NCBI RefSeq assembly: GCF_001907695.1
Contig: NZ_KV880639.1
Location: forward strand, 50,103 to 74,102
Direction: 5' to 3'
DNA from: Thalassospira sp. TSL5-1
GTDB taxonomy: Bacteria; Pseudomonadota; Alphaproteobacteria; Rhodospirillales; Thalassospiraceae
Length of the DNA stretch: 24,000 nt
Shown here: piece after piece, positions 2,865 to 16,013 of the stretch
Numbering within the stretch: the first letter of the stretch is position 1
How the letters are laid out: every line of letters starts with the position of its first letter
The notes under the pieces: model-generated
Told to the model about the DNA's origin: nothing
Seen by the model: the letters and a program-made list of their open reading frames with translations, nothing else
Database searches by the model: none
Translations under genes and position numbers: made by a program

Positions 2865-3140
2865 ATGCCCAAAAGCCCCATCAGCACCAAAGCCACCCCT
2901 ATCAACTTTCCACACGAATCATCGCCTGGCCTTGAACCAGCCCCACAATGGCCCAACTGGTTTGACCGTATTCTTAATGGCGTAAACGATTTGATAAAAA
3001 ACTGGGCCCTGTGCCAAATCCGCCGAAGAAACACATTGCGCATCGAAGACATGACAGACAGTCAGCGGGCCGATATTGGCCTGGCACCGCACAAATATGG
3101 TCGGGATATGCGAAACCATCGCTATCTCGCACGATTTTAA
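2865..3140 (+). CDS. Small DUF1127-like protein
   Basis: A strong RBS (AGGAGG) lies 7 nt upstream of the ATG. The C-terminal segment WALCQIRRRNTLRIEDMTDSQRADIGLAP fits the DUF1127 pattern (RRR-x6-L-x-D-x3-DIGL). Confidence 0.55.
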   Translation: MPKSPISTKATPINFPHESSPGLEPAPQWPNWFDRILNGVNDLIKNWALCQIRRRNTLRIEDMTDSQRADIGLAPHKYGRDMRNHRYLARF

Positions 3141-4509: not shown

Positions 4510-5577
4510 GTGCCTGACTGCAAGAAATGCGAGACCATGCCCCTACCGCTCCCCCGGCATGGACGACTTTATATTTGGCCGCCTGTTGCCCATACAGGCG
4601 GAAAAATCATCGCGGAAATACGCAAAAGCGGCCATCAGGTCGTGAATAATCTGGCAGTCTCCACCCTATATACCGATTTCGATATCGCAACATTGCCCAG
4701 TGTGATGCAAACCCTGAGTGACACGCTGTCACCTGAAGAAATGGCCGATACCAAGGCACTGATCATGGACAGCACCACGGAACCGGCTGTGGATGACATC
4801 GCGCGCGTTACGTCACTATACGCCATTCATGCCCGCCTCGGTGCAAGCTGGCTGGTTGATGTTTTGGCCGAAAGCAGGCTTCGTTCCGTTTTTCAGCCAA
4901 TTTTTGCCGCCTCGGACCTGACAACACCCTTTTCCCACGAATGCCTGATTCGCGCCGTTGACAGCCAGGGCAACATCATTGCCCCTAACCGGCTTTTTGG
5001 GGCGGCAACCTCGGCGGACCTTGTTTTTCAACTGGATCGAGCGGCACGGGCGGCAAATGTGCGTAATGCCCACGCCGCCGGGATCGACAATATTTTTATC
5101 AATTTCACCCCGTCATCCATTTACGACCCCAATTCCTGTCTGCGCTCCACCCTTCAGATCATTGATGAATGCGGGTTTGACCGCAGCAAGGTGGTGTTCG
5201 AGGTAATTGAAACCGAAAAAATCCACAGCACGGATCATCTTCGCGCCATTTTGAAATCCTATCGGGATTCCGGTTTTCGCGTGGCGCTGGATGATGTTGG
5301 TTCGGGCTATTCGACCCTGAACATGCTCTCGCAATTGCAACCCGACATCATCAAAATCGACCGGGAGCTGATCGATTATGTCGATAACGACATCTATAAG
5401 CAGGCCATTGTCAGCAAGCTGATCGATCTTGCCAAACAAATCGGCATTGAAGTGGTCGCCGAAGGTGTAGAACGCCAGGCAGAGCTTGATTTCCTGCTCT
5501 ATCACGGGGTGGATTATATTCAGGGCTTTTTGCTCGGCAGGCCCTCGCCCACCCGTTTTAGCGCAAGCAACGCCTAA
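4510..5577 (+). CDS. EAL-domain c-di-GMP phosphodiesterase with an uncharacterised ~130-aa N-terminal region
   Basis: GTG start preceded by AAGGAAG. EAL-domain motifs are all present: ECLIR, NFTPSS, FEVIETE, DDVGSGYSTLN, KIDRELI, AEGVERQAE and QGFLLGRP. Confidence 0.85.
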   Translation: MPDCKKCETMPLPLPRHGRLYIWPPVAHTGGKIIAEIRKSGHQVVNNLAVSTLYTDFDIATLPSVMQTLSDTLSPEEMADTKALIMDSTTEPAVDDIARVTSLYAIHARLGASWLVDVLAESRLRSVFQPIFAASDLTTPFSHECLIRAVDSQGNIIAPNRLFGAATSADLVFQLDRAARAANVRNAHAAGIDNIFINFTPSSIYDPNSCLRSTLQIIDECGFDRSKVVFEVIETEKIHSTDHLRAILKSYRDSGFRVALDDVGSGYSTLNMLSQLQPDIIKIDRELIDYVDNDIYKQAIVSKLIDLAKQIGIEVVAEGVERQAELDFLLYHGVDYIQGFLLGRPSPTRFSASNA

Positions 5578-9830: not shown

Positions 9831-11411
9831 CTATACGGTTTTGGTGCCTGCAATCACGCTCCATTCCAGGCCGAACTTCGATAGATATTTTCGCAGTCGG
9901 TCAGCATCGTTCTGGATACGACGTTTATCGCGGGACTTTGCGTAAAGCATGCGACCGGCCTCGCTAAGACTGGAGGCTTGGCGACATGTGCGGAGTACCA
10001 GGGCCAATTGCACCATATCGAATGGGTCAATGTCGTTTGCTTCCTCCCCCATCAGCGCCTCCACGAGCTTAAAATCGCTATTGGAGCTGGCGCTGCTCCA
10101 GTCGTGCTGAAGGGTTTCGATTTCCGCTTCCACCATCGCCTTGGTGATGCGCCCACGCGGCGAGAGAATGCACAGTCGGCGCACGGAACCCCGGAAATCG
10201 CGGAAATTTCCCGGCCAAGTTGTTGCCGGACTAGTCGCAAATTTCAGATATTTGTCACGGGCGTCCGCGTTGAAGCCCACCTGGTTCCCCAGTTCCTTTT
10301 CCGAGCGGGCCAATTCATAGAGCAAGTTTGACTCGATATCCTCGCGCCGCTCGCGCAGCGGCGGAAGTTCAAAACGCCACATGTTGAGACGCGACAAAAG
10401 ATCGGGCCGAAAACGACCTTGGGAAACAAGTGTCCGCAAATCTCGATTGGCACCTGCAATAATCTGGAAACGGCTGGAAACCTCGTGGTCTGAACCCAAA
10501 GGATAAAACCGTCCAGTCTCGATCGCGTGCAGAATGATTGATTGTTCGCTCAAGCCCAGCTCATCGACCTCGTCTAGAAACAGGATACCGCCATCTGCCT
10601 CCCGTAAAAGGCCGCGACGCTCCGAGCCAGCATGTCCGGTATAACCGCGCTGCTGACCGAAAAGCATAGCCACCGCATCACCTCCGTTCAGCGTCGCGCA
10701 ATTCACATGCACGAGCCTGCCCTTCACGCGGCGGCGATCGAGTTTCAGATTATAGATGCGTTCAGCCAGTTGGCTCTTGCCCGTGCCGGTTTCGCCAAGA
10801 AGCAGGATCGGCTCGTCCGAGTTGCTCGCGACCAGTTCTATCCGGTCGATCAGGGCATTATATGTGTCGTTGCGGGTTTCGATACCGCCCTTCAGTTGGT
10901 CACCATATTCACGCGCCAGCTTATCGAAACGCTGCTGCAGCGCATTGTAGCGGCTGAGATCGAGATCAATGATGTCAAGTTTTGGTTGACCGTCATCCTC
11001 TCGCGGCGGCCCGGTCTGGATCAGGCGTGCCGGCACGTGACGGCTTTCTGTGAGGAGAAACCAGCATATCTGCGCCACATGAGAGCCAGTGGTCAGGTGC
11101 ACATGATACCGCTCCCGGTGTTCATCAAACCCGTATGCACGCGCGAAATCGAAGAGCTTTCCGTAAACCTCCTGAAAGTCCCAAGGGTCCTTCAGGTCGA
11201 GATTGCGCAGCAAGACCTCGGTCTGCGGAGAAACCTTCTCTATCGACCGCTTCACCTGCTGGGCCAGGCGATTAAAATTCATGTCGTACAGGATTTCCAG
11301 CCGCTCGATCGGGAAGTCTTCATGCTCCACCAGACTTACGGTGGGCCGCCACCGCCGTTTCTTACCCATATCGAGCTGCGTTCCGAGAAAACCTATGACA
11401 ACATTTTTCAT
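9831..11411 (-). CDS. rtcR: RtcR-type transcriptional regulator (N-terminal CARF domain, AAA+ bEBP core, C-terminal HTH)
   Basis: The N-terminus VVIGFLGTQLDMGKKRRWRPTVSL...ERLEILYD is RtcR/CARF-like. Walker A is GETGTGKS and Walker B is ILFLDEVDEL. The C-terminus NDADRLRKYLSKFGLEW is typical of RtcR. It is divergent from rsr-rtcB. I prefer ATG 11411 to the TTG at 11423. Confidence 0.9.
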   Translation of the reverse strand: MKNVVIGFLGTQLDMGKKRRWRPTVSLVEHEDFPIERLEILYDMNFNRLAQQVKRSIEKVSPQTEVLLRNLDLKDPWDFQEVYGKLFDFARAYGFDEHRERYHVHLTTGSHVAQICWFLLTESRHVPARLIQTGPPREDDGQPKLDIIDLDLSRYNALQQRFDKLAREYGDQLKGGIETRNDTYNALIDRIELVASNSDEPILLLGETGTGKSQLAERIYNLKLDRRRVKGRLVHVNCATLNGGDAVAMLFGQQRGYTGHAGSERRGLLREADGGILFLDEVDELGLSEQSIILHAIETGRFYPLGSDHEVSSRFQIIAGANRDLRTLVSQGRFRPDLLSRLNMWRFELPPLRERREDIESNLLYELARSEKELGNQVGFNADARDKYLKFATSPATTWPGNFRDFRGSVRRLCILSPRGRITKAMVEAEIETLQHDWSSASSNSDFKLVEALMGEEANDIDPFDMVQLALVLRTCRQASSLSEAGRMLYAKSRDKRRIQNDADRLRKYLSKFGLEWSVIAGTKTV

Positions 11412-11514
11412 GACCGTATCCAAATAGATATATGGCTATAATAAATTATATTATATGGAAAAGACGAAATCCGAAAATACTTATTTTATATATTAATATC
11501 AATAACTTATGAGA

Positions 11515-11535
11515 TTTTTTCTTTTTTCTTTTTTC
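11515..11535 (+). repeat. Three perfect tandem TTTTTTC heptamers in the rtcR-rsr intergenic region
   Basis: Read directly as ttttttc ttttttc ttttttc, 52-72 nt upstream of the rsr start codon. Confidence 0.9.
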
Positions 11536-11586
11536 TGTGCATCCGTCGTGGCAAAACTTGGACATCAAAACAGAAGGAAGAAGCAA

Positions 11587-13143
11587 ATGGCGAACAAATC
11601 CGTGTTTGCGACAATCGTGGGAAAGCTGCTCCCAAAGGCAACAGACACCAATATGCATGGCGCAAAGGCCTATGCCTATGAAGATGAGCACAAGCTGGCG
11701 CAGTTGGCTGTTACGGGTACTTTTGGGGATCTGTTCTATCAGGATGCACAGACTGAACTGGACAAGGTTCTCGAACTTGCCGAACGCGTCGACCCCTATT
11801 TTCTGGCGCAGACCGCAATCTACGCTCGTAAAAAGGGTCACATGAAGGACATGCCAGCCGTGCTGTTGGCGGTTCTTGCCCGCCGTGACCCCGTGCTCTT
11901 TCGTGCCGTCTTTGGCCGCGTCGTCGATAATGGCAAGATGTTGCGCAACTTTGTGCAAGTGGTTCGTTCTGGTCAGACCGGGCGCAAATCTCTGGGAAGT
12001 GCGCCCAAGAGCATGGTGCAGAACTGGCTCAATGGCGCATCAGACCGCGCATTGCTGCAGGCCAATATCGGGAATGCGCCATCGCTGGCTGATGTGCTGA
12101 AGATGGTTCACCCGAAGCCGGTTAGCCGCGAACGCGAAGCCCTGTTTGCCTGGATCATCGGACGCCCTTGCGACGTCGCACTTCTGCCGGAAGCCGTTCG
12201 TGAATGGCTGGCCTTCAAGGAAACTGGCGAAGGCAAAGTGCCAGATGTGCCGTTCCAGATGTTGACCCAGCTTAATCTGTCGACCGAGCATTGGGCCACC
12301 ATCGCCCGCAAGAGCTCGTGGCAGATGGTGCGACAGAACCTGAATACGTTTGAACGCCACGGCGTTTTCAACGATCAGGCAAATGTGAAACATGTGGCCG
12401 AGCTACTTGCCAACCAGCAGGCGATCGCCAAGGCACGTGCGTTTCCCTATCAGTTGATGGTCGCAGCGCAGAACGTCATCGGCAAGGTGCCGCGCGAAAT
12501 CGTGGACGCACTGCATGATGCGATGGAAATCGCAGTGCAGAACGTGCCGCAGGTCGAAGGCTCGGTTGTTGTTTGCCCTGACGTGTCAGGCTCGATGACC
12601 TTTCCGGTCACGGGATATCGCCGCGGCGCGACTTCGACCGTGCGTCATGTGGATGTCGCCGCCCTTGTTGCGGCCGCGTTCCTGCGGACAAACCGGCACT
12701 GCGAGGTACTGCCGTTCGACTTTGACGTGCGAAACGCACGTCTGGAGCCGCGCGACACGATCCTGACGAATGCCGGACGGTTGGCAAAACTTGGGGGTGG
12801 CGGAACGGACTGCTCCGCACCGCTGAAGTGGCTGAACAAGCGCAAAAAGACGCCGGATCTTGTTGTATTCGTCTCGGACAATCAGTCCTGGATGGACGAC
12901 TTGAACGGTTCGCGCTCAACGGGCATGGCCCAGGAATGGGCTGTTTTAAAACAGCGCAACCCGAAGGCAAAGCTGGTGTGCATCGACATCGCGCCTTACG
13001 GCACAACGCAGGTGAAAAACCGTGAAGATGTGTTGAACATCGGCGGATTTTCCGACGCGGTATTCGATCAGATCGCCACCTTCTCCAACGGCCAAAATGG
13101 CCCGGAGCATTGGGTGGAACAGATTAAAAGGATCGAGATTTGA
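11587..13143 (+). CDS. rsr: Ro60-related protein Rsr (TROVE domain plus C-terminal vWA/MIDAS domain)
   Basis: Start set at ATG 11587 (MANKSVFA) behind GAAGGAAG. The TROVE-like N-terminus reads NMHGAKAYAY...GTFGDLFYQDAQ...AIYARKKGHMKDMPAVLLAVLA. The vWA MIDAS motif is CPDVSGSM. The ORF-track start at 11509 would translate the poly-T tract. Confidence 0.9.
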   Translation: MANKSVFATIVGKLLPKATDTNMHGAKAYAYEDEHKLAQLAVTGTFGDLFYQDAQTELDKVLELAERVDPYFLAQTAIYARKKGHMKDMPAVLLAVLARRDPVLFRAVFGRVVDNGKMLRNFVQVVRSGQTGRKSLGSAPKSMVQNWLNGASDRALLQANIGNAPSLADVLKMVHPKPVSREREALFAWIIGRPCDVALLPEAVREWLAFKETGEGKVPDVPFQMLTQLNLSTEHWATIARKSSWQMVRQNLNTFERHGVFNDQANVKHVAELLANQQAIAKARAFPYQLMVAAQNVIGKVPREIVDALHDAMEIAVQNVPQVEGSVVVCPDVSGSMTFPVTGYRRGATSTVRHVDVAALVAAAFLRTNRHCEVLPFDFDVRNARLEPRDTILTNAGRLAKLGGGGTDCSAPLKWLNKRKKTPDLVVFVSDNQSWMDDLNGSRSTGMAQEWAVLKQRNPKAKLVCIDIAPYGTTQVKNREDVLNIGGFSDAVFDQIATFSNGQNGPEHWVEQIKRIEI

Positions 13144-13148
13144 AAACA

Positions 13149-13223
13149 GGTCTGGCGGAATGCTCATGGGACTACATCCTGTCCTTTAGCACATGATCTC
13201 ATGGACACCTTGTCCGCCAGACC
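13149..13223 (+). ncRNA. Y-RNA-like module A (short form)
   Basis: An 11-bp terminal stem ggtctggcgga (13149-13159) / tccgccagacc (13213-13223) encloses the 5' box ATGCTCATGGGACTACAT (13160-13177). An inner hairpin is tgtcc/ggaca (13180-13184 / 13203-13207). The 3' box CCTTG abuts the stem. Confidence 0.55.
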
Positions 13224-13244
13224 TGACCAGACATCTTGAGGAGA

Positions 13245-13376
13245 TGCGGCGAATGCCAGTGGAACTACATCAACTGTAATGCCCATGTCGCGGGTTCGAG
13301 TCCCGCCGTGGTCACGGCCACGTAGCTCAGTCGGTAGAGCAAAGCACTTACGTTTCACAACACACTTGTCGCCGCA
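13245..13376 (+). ncRNA. Y-RNA-like module B with a circularly permuted tRNA-like domain (YrlA-like)
   Basis: The terminal stem is tgcggcga (13245-13252) / tcgccgca (13369-13376). The 5' box is ATGCCAGTGGAACTACAT and the 3' box is CACACTTG. The interior reads T-arm gcggg-TTCGAGT-cccgc (13290-13306), a closed acceptor-like hairpin (13307-13322), and D-arm gctc-AGTCGGTA-gagc (13325-13340). Confidence 0.75.
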
Positions 13377-13398
13377 GCTTTTCCAAGGAAAGCGGAAA

Positions 13399-13484
13399 CA
13401 CATAGGAGGAATGCCCGTGGGACTACATTGGCAACCAGCCTGTTTGAAACAGGCAATGTCTCACAATCCCTTGTCCTCCATCTG
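13399..13484 (+). ncRNA. Y-RNA-like module C (short, with T-loop-like hairpin)
   Basis: The stem ggagga (13405-13410) / tcctcc (13474-13479) is extended by T13403:A13480 and neighbours around a bulged A13404. The 5' box is ATGCCCGTGGGACTACAT and the 3' box is CCCTTG. The inner hairpin is cctg-TTTGAAA-cagg (13439-13453). Confidence 0.6.
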
Positions 13485-13501
13485 AATATGTAAAAGGAAG
13501 A

Positions 13502-13650
13502 TCCTGGCGAATGCTAAAGGAACTACATGGCACAATCGGGAAGGTGTGTGGGTTCAACTCCCCTCCAGGCCAGCGCCCAGACGGCAAACGTACAAGCCAA
13601 AAGCTTGTGCGGGGCGGCCTCCCAACGTTTCTTCTCCTTTGTCGCCGGGA
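13502..13650 (+). ncRNA. Y-RNA-like module D (T-loop hairpin plus long bulged hairpin)
   Basis: The stem is tcctggcga (13502-13510) / tcgccggga (13642-13650). The 5' box is ATGCTAAAGGAACTACAT, and aaagga (13516-13521) pairs with tccttt (13635-13640). The interior has ggg-TTCAACT-ccc (13550-13562) and a long hairpin at 13567-13620 (aggcc..gccc..cgtacaagc / gcttgtgcg gggc ggcct). Confidence 0.6.
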
Positions 13651-13693
13651 ACTGAAAACGAAAATCCGCAATTCGCACTGACAGAAGGAATGA

Positions 13694-13825
13694 TGCGGCG
13701 AATACCAGTGGAACTACATCAACTGTAATGCCCAGGTCGCGGGTTCGACTCCCGCCGTGGTCACGACCACGTAGCTCAGTCGGTAGAGCAGAGCACATAC
13801 GTTTCACAACACACTTGTCGCCGCA
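13694..13825 (+). ncRNA. Y-RNA-like module B' (second copy of the tRNA-like YrlA-type module)
   Basis: This is a copy of module B at +449 nt. The stem is tgcggcga (13694-13701) / tcgccgca (13818-13825) and the box is ATACCAGTGGAACTACAT. The T-arm is gcggg-TTCGACT-cccgc, and the acceptor-like hairpin and D-arm are retained. Confidence 0.75.
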
Positions 13826-13847
13826 GCTTTCTCAAGGAAGGCGAAAA

Positions 13848-13933
13848 CACACAGGAGGAATACCTGTGGGACTACATTGGAAACCAGCCTGTTCGAATCA
13901 GGCAACGTCTCACAATCCATTGTCCTCCGTCTG
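13848..13933 (+). ncRNA. Y-RNA-like module C' (copy of C)
   Basis: The stem is ggagga (13854-13859) / tcctcc (13923-13928) and the box is ATACCTGTGGGACTACAT. The inner hairpin cctg-TTCGAAT-cagg (13888-13902) has a canonical T-loop sequence. C13852:G13929 replaces the T:A pair of module C. Confidence 0.6.
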
Positions 13934-13948
13934 AATGTAAAAGGAATA

Positions 13949-14098
13949 TCCTGGCGAATGCCGAAGGAACTACATGGCACAATCGGGAAGGTGTGTGGGT
14001 TCAACTCCCCTCCAGGCCTGCGCCCAGACGGCAAACGTGCAAGCCAAAAGCTTGTGCGGGGCGGCCTCCCAAATGTTTCTTCTCTTTTGTCGCCCGGA
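13949..14098 (+). ncRNA. Y-RNA-like module D' (copy of D)
   Basis: The stem is tcctggcga (13949-13957) / tcgcccgga (14090-14098), with one C-U mismatch. The box is ATGCCGAAGGAACTACAT. The same T-loop hairpin and long hairpin as in D are present. Confidence 0.55.
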
Positions 14099-14102
14099 CT
14101 CC

Positions 14103-14120: not shown

Positions 14121-14305
14121 CCTCTATTAATTGGATTCATGAAACGATGAAAGTTGCAAGCGGGGGTGGCCGCAGGACCACAGATAGACGCACTCGTCAA
14201 AAGTAGCAGGGGACCTGCCGTGTTGGCTTACCCCGACCCGGAACACCCCGGCGGCTGAATATTTGTCTTGCAAATACTCTAGCCCCCAATGCAGAGGAAA
14301 AGATA

Positions 14306-15712
14306 ATGACGGAAGAAAACGGGCTTGAAACCATCACCGGAAATCACTTGAAACAGTGGGGACATGAGCCGGGCAAGCACTTTCCGAAACTGATTGAACG
14401 CGCCAATACCCTGCAAGCCGAGGGCGTGGTCATTGATCAGATTCGCGAAGCGCTTGAAAGCGAGAAAGTTGTTCCTCTCAATCTTCGTGCCAGGGGTGAA
14501 CTGACGTTTCACGAAAATATTCAGATCGCTCACCCCGACGAAGAGAACAATCTCTCCAAGGTTCGTGAAACCATGGTTGAGCTGATGCGCACGCCGACGA
14601 TTGTTGCCGGTGCGATCATGCCCGATGCCTGTCCCGCGGGACCGACAGGTACGATCCCGGTTGGCGGCGTGGTTGCAGCACGCAATGCTATTCACCCTGG
14701 CATGCATTCAGCCGATATCTGTTGCTCGGTTATGATGACCGACCTGGGATATGCAGACCCGAAGACCGTGTTGAATGCTGCACAATCGGTAACGCATTTC
14801 GGTCCGGGCGGTCGCCCGCAGGGCCAGCGTTTCACCGTTTCACTCGCCCTGATGGATGCGTTTCGCGAGAACCCGTTTCTGAACCACCCCAAAGCCTTGC
14901 GCATGGCGCAAGAGCATATGGGCACACAAGGAGACGGGAACCACTTCCTGTTTGTAGGCCGTTCACGCAAAACGGGACGAACGGCGATGATAACCCATCA
15001 CGGTTCGCGCGGTCCGGGTGCGCTTCTCTACAAGCATGGCATGACGGTTGCTGAACGTTTCCGCAAGCAGCTTTCACCGCAGACCCTGAAGCAAAATGCC
15101 TGGATTCCGGTCGATACACGGGAGGGACAGGACTATTGGGACGCCTTGCAACTGATCCGCAAATGGACAAAGGCCAACCATAATGCCATCCATCAAGCCA
15201 CCGTTGAGACGGCCGGGGTGCAGGACATGGGCGAGCGTTTCTGGAACGAACATAATTTCGTCTTCAAACGTGGCGATCTCTTCTATCACGGCAAAGGTGC
15301 CACGCCTGCCTGGGACGGTTATGCAAGTGATGCAACGGGTCTGACCCTCATCCCTCTCAACATGTCCGAGCCTGTGCTGGTGGTGCGTGGCAAGGATGCC
15401 GAAACGGGCCTTGGCTTCAGCCCGCATGGCGCGGGGCGCAATTTTTCCCGCTCCGAGCATCGCCGCCGTTCAGAAAACACGACGCCGGAAGCCATGCTGA
15501 AGGCGGAAACGGACGGGCTGGATATCCGCTTCCACGCCGGTGGAATTGACATTTCCGAACTGCCGTCCGGCTACAAGAGCGCCGAAAACGTGGTGTCTCA
15601 GATCGAGTCCTACGGTCTCGCAGATATTGACGACTATATCGACCCGTATGGCTGCATCATGGCCGGCAATGTTCCGCCTGTCTGGCGGCTACGCAAAGCG
15701 GGCAGACGATGA
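14306..15712 (+). CDS. rtcB: RtcB-family RNA 3'-phosphate/2',3'-cyclic phosphate ligase, divergent long form (468 aa)
   Basis: The RBS AGAGGAAAAG precedes the ATG. RtcB motifs are retained: MPDAC, HSADICCS (the D-x-x-C metal site), GDGNHF, HHGSRGPG, EHNF and PHGAGR (guanylylated His motif). It is about 60 aa longer at the N-terminus than the 408-aa E. coli enzyme (length from memory). Confidence 0.9.
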   Translation: MTEENGLETITGNHLKQWGHEPGKHFPKLIERANTLQAEGVVIDQIREALESEKVVPLNLRARGELTFHENIQIAHPDEENNLSKVRETMVELMRTPTIVAGAIMPDACPAGPTGTIPVGGVVAARNAIHPGMHSADICCSVMMTDLGYADPKTVLNAAQSVTHFGPGGRPQGQRFTVSLALMDAFRENPFLNHPKALRMAQEHMGTQGDGNHFLFVGRSRKTGRTAMITHHGSRGPGALLYKHGMTVAERFRKQLSPQTLKQNAWIPVDTREGQDYWDALQLIRKWTKANHNAIHQATVETAGVQDMGERFWNEHNFVFKRGDLFYHGKGATPAWDGYASDATGLTLIPLNMSEPVLVVRGKDAETGLGFSPHGAGRNFSRSEHRRRSENTTPEAMLKAETDGLDIRFHAGGIDISELPSGYKSAENVVSQIESYGLADIDDYIDPYGCIMAGNVPPVWRLRKAGRR

Positions 15713-15936: not shown

Positions 15937-16013
15937 TGGTAGCGGAGGAGGGACTTGAACCCCCGACACGCGGATTATGATTCCGCTGCTCTAACCAGCT
16001 GAGCTACTCCGCC
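15937..16013 (-). tRNA. tRNA-Met (anticodon CAU), elongator-like; tRNA-Ile2(k2C) cannot be excluded
   Basis: The reverse complement folds as a cloverleaf. The acceptor is ggcggag/ctccgct (with G1-U72) and the D-arm is gctc-agctggtta-gagc. The anticodon arm is gcgga-AUCAUAA-tccgc and the T-arm is ggggg-TTCAAGT-ccctc. The CCA end is encoded. It lacks the initiator hallmarks (no 3 G-C pairs in the anticodon stem, no 1:72 mismatch). Confidence 0.9.

Follow-up and report, generated by a model that had tools for sequence, protein, structure and literature searches.

Predicted Y RNA Paralogs With Partial tRNA-Like Tips Between rsr and rtcB of Thalassospira sp. TSL5-1

The window analyzed in this study is a stretch of 24,000 nucleotides (nt) from Thalassospira sp. 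TSL5-1, and the elements in question, named modules C and D, lie between its rsr and rtcB genes. The rtcR gene, which encodes the sigma-54 activator of the RNA repair operon, was found on the minus strand at positions 9831–11423 (Pfam RtcR, 8.2e-74; Sigma54_activat, 2.1e-38). On the plus strand were rsr, which encodes the Ro60 ortholog, at 11587–13143 (Pfam vWA_Ro60, 1.6e-16; TROVE, 6.4e-07) and rtcB, which encodes an RNA ligase, at 14306–15712 (Pfam RtcB, 5.7e-34). The mechanical open reading frame (ORF) of rsr began at 11509, and its likely start was the ATG at 11587 (homologs of 518 amino acid residues spanned 95% of the ORF). This layout of rtcR, rsr and rtcB with Y RNAs is the known arrangement of the RNA repair operon (PMC4201824; PMC7790460). 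Modules C and D began 260 and 360 nt past the rsr stop codon, respectively, on the plus strand, and the same arrangement was found in all related loci.

Between rsr and rtcB, the region 13150–14100 was a tandem array of seven Y RNA-like units, which was accompanied by one decayed unit; all of them were on the plus strand. A 24-nt Ro-stem motif, GGNGRAAURC-N4-GGRACUACAU, occurred in seven copies between the two genes, each with YUUGUCNCC downstream as its match, so that each unit closes its own bulged stem. In each unit, the 5' and 3' ends pair into this bulged stem, which contains a G-N-(C/G)-GAAUGC motif, and the distal end is the effector domain. Module A (13150–13222), with the first motif copy, was a plain hairpin Y RNA without a T-arm. 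Its fold had an energy of -36.3 kcal/mol (z = -5.33), and it was conserved in loci L001 and L003 and in the roseobacter loci. It was followed by module B (13246–13378), module C (13403–13481, third motif copy) and module D (13503–13650). The eighth unit (14158–14292) was recognized by its alignment with intact units of a type named E, and both its Ro motif and its T-arm were broken. The preliminary description of the window had treated C and D as modules of one Y RNA. As a Ro-binding stem is present in each of them, they are, as far as sequence can tell, separate and complete Y RNA-like units.

The B-C-D unit was tandemly duplicated (13243–13625 versus 13692–14072), with a period of 447–449 bp and identities of 92–96%. 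The second copies were B' (13695–13827), C' (13852–13930) and D' (13950–14098). T-loops do recur in every duplicated module, as was pointed out earlier, but this recurrence reflects the 449-bp tandem duplication. The closest relative, L001, had one B-C-D only before its contig ended, and thus the duplication may be recent. In L003, the order of the units was different (A, an unassigned element, D, B, C, D, and E). Thus, the arrays rearrange quickly.

Modules B and B' were YrlA-type units with a full tRNA-like domain, and they matched the Rfam YrlA family at 67.2 (E = 6.5e-15) and 65.3 bits, respectively, slightly below its gathering score of 69. The YrlA matches of D and D' were weak (15.6 and 15.9 bits, respectively), and C was not reported. 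The distal domains of C and D thus fell below the Rfam threshold for every family, in keeping with the unrecognized effector domains that the preliminary description had suspected. At the gathering threshold, the sole Rfam match in the whole window was a tRNA-Met at 15940–16013, with which ARAGORN agreed. Thus, neither C nor D is a tRNA gene or a member of a curated family. A BLAST search of the array against plasmids returned three short matches, all to the YrlA part and none to C or D. The spacer between rtcR and rsr (11424–11586) was very AT-rich. Although RtcR is a sigma-54 activator, no match to the sigma-54 consensus TGGC-N7-TTGCW was found in this spacer, even with one mismatch. Within the array, no intrinsic terminators above the chance level were found. 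The rsr gene, the Y array and rtcB are presumed to be co-transcribed.

Related loci were collected by a scan anchored on rsr, in which each species was represented by one genome (28 loci), a DNA-pattern scan of metagenomes (10 further loci with D-type units) and look-ups of Rsr homologs with identities of 70–77% (12 loci). In all alphaproteobacterial loci, an array of 3–8 Y units lay downstream of rsr, frequently interrupted by tRNA genes. The D-types of the 10 metagenome loci were all within arrays of Y modules. Of these loci, eight had rsr visible upstream, and L044 and L062 ran on into genes other than rtcB.

A covariance model, R1, was built from 17 D-type units and recovered a discrete family beside rsr. 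R1 had 27 matches with scores of 94–168 bits, including D (150.3 bits) and D' (155.7 bits), whereas all other Y modules scored 61 bits or less. D-type units were present in 13 of the 14 rsr-anchored alphaproteobacterial loci, the exception being L069. Their loci came from Thalassospira, Martelella, Roseibium and many roseobacter genera, among which the identities of Rsr ranged from 70 to 94%. C-type units were found in 4 of these 14 loci. Thus, both module types recur at related rsr loci, and the refutation foreseen in the preliminary description, which was their absence there, did not come about. R1 found no D-type in 24 Pseudomonas loci, one Brocadiaceae locus and the viral contigs. Fourteen matches to the D pattern in viral contigs were discarded as chance matches, none of them being scored by R1. 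The D-type units shared the invariant blocks GGGUUCRACUCCCCUC, GCGCCCANAYGGNAAA, GGGCGG, and GUUUCUU. Rfam 15 contained no family for the D-type, its crossing helices or its D-like arm with an inserted hairpin. No description of the D-type was found in the searchable literature, which included neither the principal reviews nor the supplementary material of Chen et al. (2014), and a survey of small RNAs of Ruegeria pomeroyi did not mention these RNAs. Y RNA arrays, tRNA-like Y RNAs and minor Y RNAs bearing a T-arm are already known. The D-type is a conserved Y RNA family that is undescribed as far as we found, and its apparently new features are the crossing helices and the D-like arm with an inserted hairpin.

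Bacterial Y RNAs are characterized by a GNCGAAN0-1G motif near the 5' end (PMC4201824). Modules D and D' carry GGCGAAUG, which fits this motif. C and C' read GAGGAAUG and GAGGAAUA, respectively, and A reads GCGGAAUG, all with a G in place of the C of the motif. In A, C and C', this replacement was offset by an extra C in the 3' strand (UCCUCC, UCCGCC). The lower (13503–13510/13642–13649) and upper (13516–13523/13627–13634) stems of D were 97.6% paired among 26 D-type copies, with compensatory pairs. The lower (13405–13410/13474–13479) and upper (13417–13423/13458–13464) stems of C were 100% paired among nine relatives, with one compensatory pair in each. In YrlA-type RNAs, the stem that carries the GNCGAA-type motif is the binding site of Rsr (Ro60), which, by analogy, is predicted to bind the stems of C and D.

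All hairpins that had been drawn earlier were present in the sequence, those of C at 13439–13453, C' at 13888–13902, D at 13550–13562 and D' at 13997–14009, as well as a 54-nt element of D at 13567–13620 with the complementary strands aggcc/ggcct and gccc/gggc. To these, the comparison of D-types added two helices, P2 and P3. On alignment A2, which contained 26 D-type copies and was laid out by hand, the full model of D was 96.3% paired, with 19 pairs changed on both sides, and its covariation score was 0.284 versus 0.07 or less for controls with slid partners. The helices were also scored without alignment: in 17 lineage representatives, the duplex energy of the two strands from the same sequence was set against the energies obtained after the partners had been permuted (5000 permutations, relatedness of the sequences being ignored). 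By this score, permutations as good as the cognate strands numbered 1 for P2, 2 for P3 and 0 for the inner hairpin.

The T-loop hairpin of D, GGG-UUCAACU-CCC, had the loop UUCRAYU in 26 of 27 copies. A T stem of 5 bp was rejected, as its 50:64 pair was mismatched in 24 of 26 copies. P3 pairs the nucleotides right after CUACA with those two nt 5' of the CGCCC stem, which are UGGC at 13528–13531 and GCCA at 13569–13572 in the window. The P3 strands of the family included UGGC/GCCA (window), CAUGC/GCAUG, UGCA/UGCA, CUGCA/UGCAG, and CGC/GCG; changes on both sides were found in two of five pairs, for instance G-C/U-A/C-G at column 32-130. P2 pairs the purine-rich segment upstream of the T hairpin, GGG-a-AGGU at 13538–13545, with the nucleotides immediately 3' of GGGCG (GCCUCCC at 13617–13623). 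Its examples were GGG-a-AGGU/GCCUCCC (window), CCGGAGG/CCUCCGG, GGAAGACC/GGUCUUUC, and UCCGGG..ACC/GGUCCCGGG, and seven of its eight pairs were changed on both sides. The inner hairpin (13589–13611, cgtacaagc-caaaa-gcttgtgcg) varied in sequence, stem length and loop, and all five of its pairs were changed on both sides. The corresponding elements of D' were a T hairpin at 13997–14009, a D-like element at 14021–14035, an inserted hairpin at 14036–14058 and GGGCG at 14059–14063. RNAalifold on a plain MAFFT alignment (A1) recovered the inner hairpin, the Y stems and P3. The small invariant hairpins that it also proposed (GCC/GGC inside the D-like loop and GGGG/CCCC) had no covariation and were not adopted. 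Judged from these comparisons, the compensatory changes in three helices together with the long invariant blocks are what selection on the structure leaves behind. The helices P2 and P3 cross, and their strands do not overlap. The core of D is either a pseudoknot of both helices or two alternative states.

The part of the 54-nt element that had been drawn as a 10-nt bulge (agacggcaaa, 13579–13588) reads as the loop of a D-arm-like element. This element, CGCCC-AGACGGCAAA-variable hairpin-GGGCG, has a 5-bp stem, CGCCC/GGGCG. Its 5' stem strand and loop (13574–13588) were near-invariant and fit GCNCARNYGGYA, and its 3' stem strand (13612–13616) was followed without a gap by the 3' strand of P2. 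Moreover, GCCC-AGACGGCA...GGGC fits the D-arm consensus GCNC-ARNYGGYA, and its spacing was identical to that of the D-arm of module B, GCUC-AGUCGGUA-GAGC. The positions conserved in tRNAs, G10, C11, C13, A14, R15, Y17, G18, G19, and A21, all agreed. Outside tRNA and Y genes, GCNCARNYGGYA had a background of ~3e-5 per position (1.18 Mb), equivalent to ~3e-3 per 90-nt region, a figure uncorrected for the pattern having been picked after the sequence was seen. Thus, the earlier claim that neither hairpin has a D-arm partner held for C, whereas the T-loop of D probably, by sequence, has a D-arm-like one.

The elements of D follow each other in the order of the P2 5' strand, a variable segment of 4–11 nt, the T hairpin, a linker, the D-like arm and, without a spacer, the P2 3' strand. 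P2, the equivalent of the anticodon stem, continues the D-like stem without interruption. The D loop near A21 is the part that varies in length among tRNAs, and the inserted hairpin of D was placed after A21. In every copy, this hairpin, which has a length of 14–23 nt, separated AGACGGCAAA from the 3' strand of the D-like stem, so the D-like loop was not closed directly; the loop of a tRNA D-arm has 7–11 nt. The E-type units indicate that a helix leaving from the D loop is tolerated in this RNA superfamily. The linker between the T hairpin and the D-like arm, CUCCAGGCCAG, contained no hairpin, and hence D had no acceptor-like stem-loop. This order is that of the YrlA crystal structure minus the acceptor hairpin (PMC4201824; 10.1101/312249).

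The T-arm of C, GCCUG-UUUGAAA-CAGGC, was at 13438–13454, and that of C', GCCUG-UUCGAAU-CAGGC, was at 13887–13903. The T-loop consensus that had been claimed for both module types was confirmed for C', D and D' but not for C. The hairpin of C' (cctG-TTCGAAT-Cagg) folded alone into 5 bp with a 7-nt loop and fully agreed with the definition of a T-arm (a 7-nt UUCRANY loop, a G53-C61 closing pair and a 5-bp stem). The hairpin of C (cctG-TTTGAAA-Cagg) folded alone into a 7-bp stem with a triloop; its loop UUUGAAA departs from the consensus at two positions and from the UUCGAYU of its homologs, and this copy may be drifting. The U at position 1 and the A at position 5 of the T-loop were present in all copies (C, C', D, and D'). 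Nine C-type units were found, eight of which kept the 17-nt block GCCUG-UUCGAYU-CAGG(C/U); the T-arm of L035 was different. According to our own calculation, the chance expectation for a UUCRANY loop that is closed by a G-C pair on a stem of 5 bp is ~1e-6 per position. Given this expectation and the conservation of the block in relatives, the C-type T-arm is above chance. The C pattern had no match in the viral contigs. Nothing like a D-arm was found in C. The C-types of roseobacters (L052, L064, and L068) had a GC-rich tetraloop hairpin after the T-arm, at the position of the acceptor stem-loop of YrlA. In the lineage of the window, C had no acceptor-like hairpin and possessed a 3-bp UGG-NAA-CCA hairpin before the T-arm. 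Thus, C is a Y RNA that keeps the T-arm only, or the T-arm and an acceptor-like hairpin.

Units with a T-arm were also seen outside the Alphaproteobacteria. The rsr loci of Pseudomonas contained arrays of 3–5 units, one of which combined a T-arm with an acceptor-like hairpin and lacked a D-arm. Thus, Y units that possess a T-arm without a D-arm are widespread. These arrays (L004–L028; e.g., L005 5685–5775) opened with a minimal hairpin Y unit. The second unit contained gCCGG-UUUCGAU-aCCGGc followed by a ccgug-gcaa-cacgg hairpin, and 1–3 YrlA-type units came after it.

The gene for YrlA (RF02553) of S. Typhimurium, similar to C and D, closely follows rsr and shares its strand within an rtcR/rtcB locus (Chen et al., 2014; PMC4201824; 10.1101/312249). 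YrlA also has a basal stem with a GNCGAA-type motif and a distal domain made from tRNA parts, in the permuted order of anticodon-stem strand, variable segment, T-arm, D-arm and anticodon-stem strand. Module B was a YrlA at near-threshold score. Different from YrlA, C of the window lacked both the acceptor hairpin and the D-arm, and D lacked the acceptor hairpin, had a T stem of 3 bp and possessed a hairpin inside the D-like loop as well as the extra crossing helix P3. Neither contained the T-arm, acceptor-like stem-loop and D-arm that follow each other in YrlA, and neither reached the 69 bits. In the preliminary description, C and D had not been recognized among the described Y RNAs. This agrees with the Rfam results, but a T-arm without a full D-arm has precedents in YrlB and Yrn1 (PMC4201824). 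YrlB of Mycobacterium smegmatis is a second, smaller Rsr-bound Y RNA beside YrlA that comes from the same precursor and has a possible T-arm but no full tRNA-like domain (PMC4201824). Compared by description rather than by sequence, it is the closest described analog of C, although its locus is upstream of rsr, whereas C is downstream. Yrn1 of Deinococcus radiodurans, which tethers Rsr to PNPase, has a T stem-loop and some features of a D-loop but no full D-arm (PMC4201824). It is an analog of D in that the tip of a Y RNA forms a partial elbow. Different from D, however, Yrn1 has an anticodon-arm-like hairpin and neither a described pseudoknot nor an inserted hairpin, and its authors call it evolutionarily distant from the YrlA-type (PMC4201824).

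The analyses described above would place D among the RNAs that imitate part of a tRNA. The tRNA-like structures of TYMV-type viruses mimic part of the L through a pseudoknotted acceptor arm, and the tRNA-like domain of tmRNA has a reduced D-arm and keeps the T-loop. Different from these RNAs, which are aminoacylatable and either 3'-terminal or split-ended, D lacks an acceptor end and forms the tip of a Ro-binding stem. Its T hairpin gave a weak partial match to tmRNA in Rfam (10.2 bits).

Considered together, the results lead us to favor, with more confidence than doubt, the explanation that C and D are separate Y RNA genes of the array, that their tips are cut-down or rearranged tRNA shapes and that the T-loop of D is met in cis. 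Our confidence is higher for the part in which C and D are independent Y RNA paralogs with YrlA-derived tips and lower for the elbow, which, taken alone, we hold at somewhat under an even chance on the sequences compared; it is nevertheless better supported than the absence of a D-arm from D. According to this explanation, the units of the array would be processed from the rsr-rtcB transcript and Rsr would bind the basal stem of each RNA, as can be extrapolated from the literature on YrlA and Yrn1. The tips would then offer distinct partial tRNA shapes: B would present the whole L, C the T-arm and D an elbow of T-loop and D-loop. Through these shapes, the RNAs might engage factors that recognize tRNAs, or might gate the Rsr ring in different ways. 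The T-loop of D would dock on the D-like loop in cis rather than capture another RNA, and D would thereby be a pseudoknotted elbow mimic that lacks the acceptor.

Several observations weigh against this explanation. For the elbow, no covariation was seen between the T-loop and the D-like loop of D. Inspection for a Levitt-type 15:48 pair or for covariation of G19:C56 likewise found none. Position 15 of the D-like loop was U in 5 of 27 copies (L003a, L052, L059a, and L066 among them), and the D-type of R. pomeroyi (L064:5544–5698), the sole exception of the 27, had the T-loop UUGAACU, with a G at position 56, and an unchanged D-like loop. This disfavors a strict G19-C56 pair. The D-like stem was near-invariant, with a single compensatory event (outer pair C-G to U-A in L066). 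The three G-C pairs of the D T hairpin were invariant in 26 of 26 copies, which leaves no covariation to score, and this hairpin alone was unstable (-3.3 kcal/mol, z = +0.31). For the fold as a whole, the 100% pairing of P2 and P3 on A2 holds by construction, as A2 was fitted to them; the disregard of relatedness in the permutation score counts in the same direction. The single-sequence folding z-scores of whole D modules were not significant, and P2 and P3 may be alternative rather than simultaneous folds. For C, the Ro motif reads GGAA instead of CGAA, and the T-arm was near-invariant, with one-sided changes only and no compensatory change. Finally, neither a description of Y RNAs in these bacteria nor data on their binding by Rsr were found in the literature searched.

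A further-reaching version of the favored explanation seems doubtful to us, though still conceivable. It takes the D-type as an undescribed, widespread Y RNA class of marine Alphaproteobacteria with a pseudoknotted elbow mimic, and the array as a toolkit of tRNA shapes that would couple one Ro60 ring to several tRNA-recognizing or RNA-repair enzymes upon rtc induction. In this toolkit, A would be a plain hairpin, B the whole L, C the T-arm half, and E a class II tRNA-like domain permuted in the D loop.

The preliminary description had instead proposed that the T-loops of C and D are orphans, which dock between Y modules or capture the elbow of a tRNA, and that the 54-nt bulged hairpin is an effector arm. 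T-loops are general docking motifs, which speaks for this proposal, as does the T-arm of C, which has no D-arm-like counterpart. Moreover, the 54-nt piece alone folded as it had been drawn (-25.7 kcal/mol, z = -2.4). The sequence of this hairpin, its fold in isolation and its covarying inner part were thus borne out, but its outer stem aggcc/ggcct was not. In the 99-nt context, D of the window formed GGGA/UCCC and CGCCC/GGGCG instead of aggcc/ggcct. The outer stem was present only in close relatives of the window, was 48.8% paired among the 26 D-types without covariation, and was equaled by 3450 of 5000 permutations, and it competes with the covarying P2 and P3. For D, docking or capture is made less likely by the conserved loop of D-arm consensus that is able to occupy its T-loop. 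The RNAs known to capture elbows (RNase P, T-box, and the L1 stalk) do so with two interdigitated T-loops, not with a single T-arm. In addition, the presence of a Ro stem in each module makes it probable that processing yields C and D as separate RNAs (as reasoned from PMC4201824). For YrlA itself, the authors of its structure predict that the effector recognizes the elbow (10.1101/312249). Considering both sides, we regard the orphan T-loops and the effector arm as unlikely.

Still less likely is that tandem duplication gave rise to C and D as YrlA copies that have lost their function and are decaying, or as a spacer in the rsr-rtcB precursor. The array is prone to duplication and decay, as its doubled B-C-D and the degenerate E module illustrate, the T-loop of the window copy of C is mutated, C-types are patchy among the rsr-anchored loci, and truncated YrlA-like units were found at other loci. 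However, D-types are kept in nearly all of these loci, although Rsr is only 70–94% identical among them, and they combine long invariant blocks with compensatory changes in three helices; the T-arm and both stems of the C-type are conserved over the same range. A conformational switch, in which P2 and P3 would be mutually exclusive and D would alternate between, for instance, a Ro-bound and an effector-bound state, is equally improbable: both helices covary yet cross, the outer stem is a third competing pairing in the lineage of the window and the T hairpin of D is marginally stable, but the strands of P2 and P3 can coexist and their connectors, which are segments of 4–11 nt and loops with hairpins in them, have the length that a pseudoknot requires.

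If the favored explanation is correct, Y RNAs with the whole tRNA shape, with the T-arm only and with the T-loop/D-loop core are found side by side at rsr and rtcB as a deletion series made by evolution, and the partner of each member would reveal which part of the tRNA shape matters. Annotation with the Rfam YrlA family overlooks most of the Y RNA genes in these arrays. The carriers of D-types include model organisms suited to testing, such as R. pomeroyi DSS-3, whose T-loop is the UUGAACU exception.

Other elements were also found in the related arrays. The E-type is a fifth type of Y unit (L003:6519–6655; L059:3480–3619, minus strand; L037:3297–3431; L073:5716–5850; L065:5348–5482). Its Ro stem is followed by a D-stem-like pairing of GGUAGA-CGC with GCG-GAAA. 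Enclosed by this pairing are a hairpin similar to an anticodon arm, a long hairpin similar to a variable arm, a T-arm of 5 bp and an acceptor-like hairpin, and compensatory changes were found in 14 of the 36 predicted pairs. The E-type resembles a class II tRNA with a circular permutation in the D loop, whereas YrlA is permuted in the anticodon loop. Apparent tRNA genes were seen among the Y units of several loci (L002 5170–5245 and 5575–5650; L036, L044, L047, L052, L064, L071, and L072). Their anticodon loops, read by eye, included Lys-CTT and Asn-GTT, among others; they were found in roseobacter rsr-rtcB loci, and L044 had three in a row.

A recurrent element of ~120 nt without the Ro-stem motif was found in the arrays of L037 (~2950–3070), L052 (reverse strand, ~4595–4715), L067 (5262–5388), and L073 (5175–5296). 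Its sequence reads gcgtttaatg...ggcgggggcac...GGGTTCGACTCC...gggcgctc...ggcatgggcgg...aaacgc and includes a T-loop-like hairpin, and its L067 copy gave a weak match to R1 (32.5 bits). A second recurrent element, cccttcggagatgcgcgggt..., was found in L003, L035, L052, and L059. Finally, some related loci, but not the window, had a small ORF of ~120–147 amino acid residues without a Pfam match directly upstream of rtcB (L067 7445–7876; L069 5757–6125; L071 5871–6314), the N-terminus of which resembled F-C-K-x-C-x-x-R-L-x-x-W-L.

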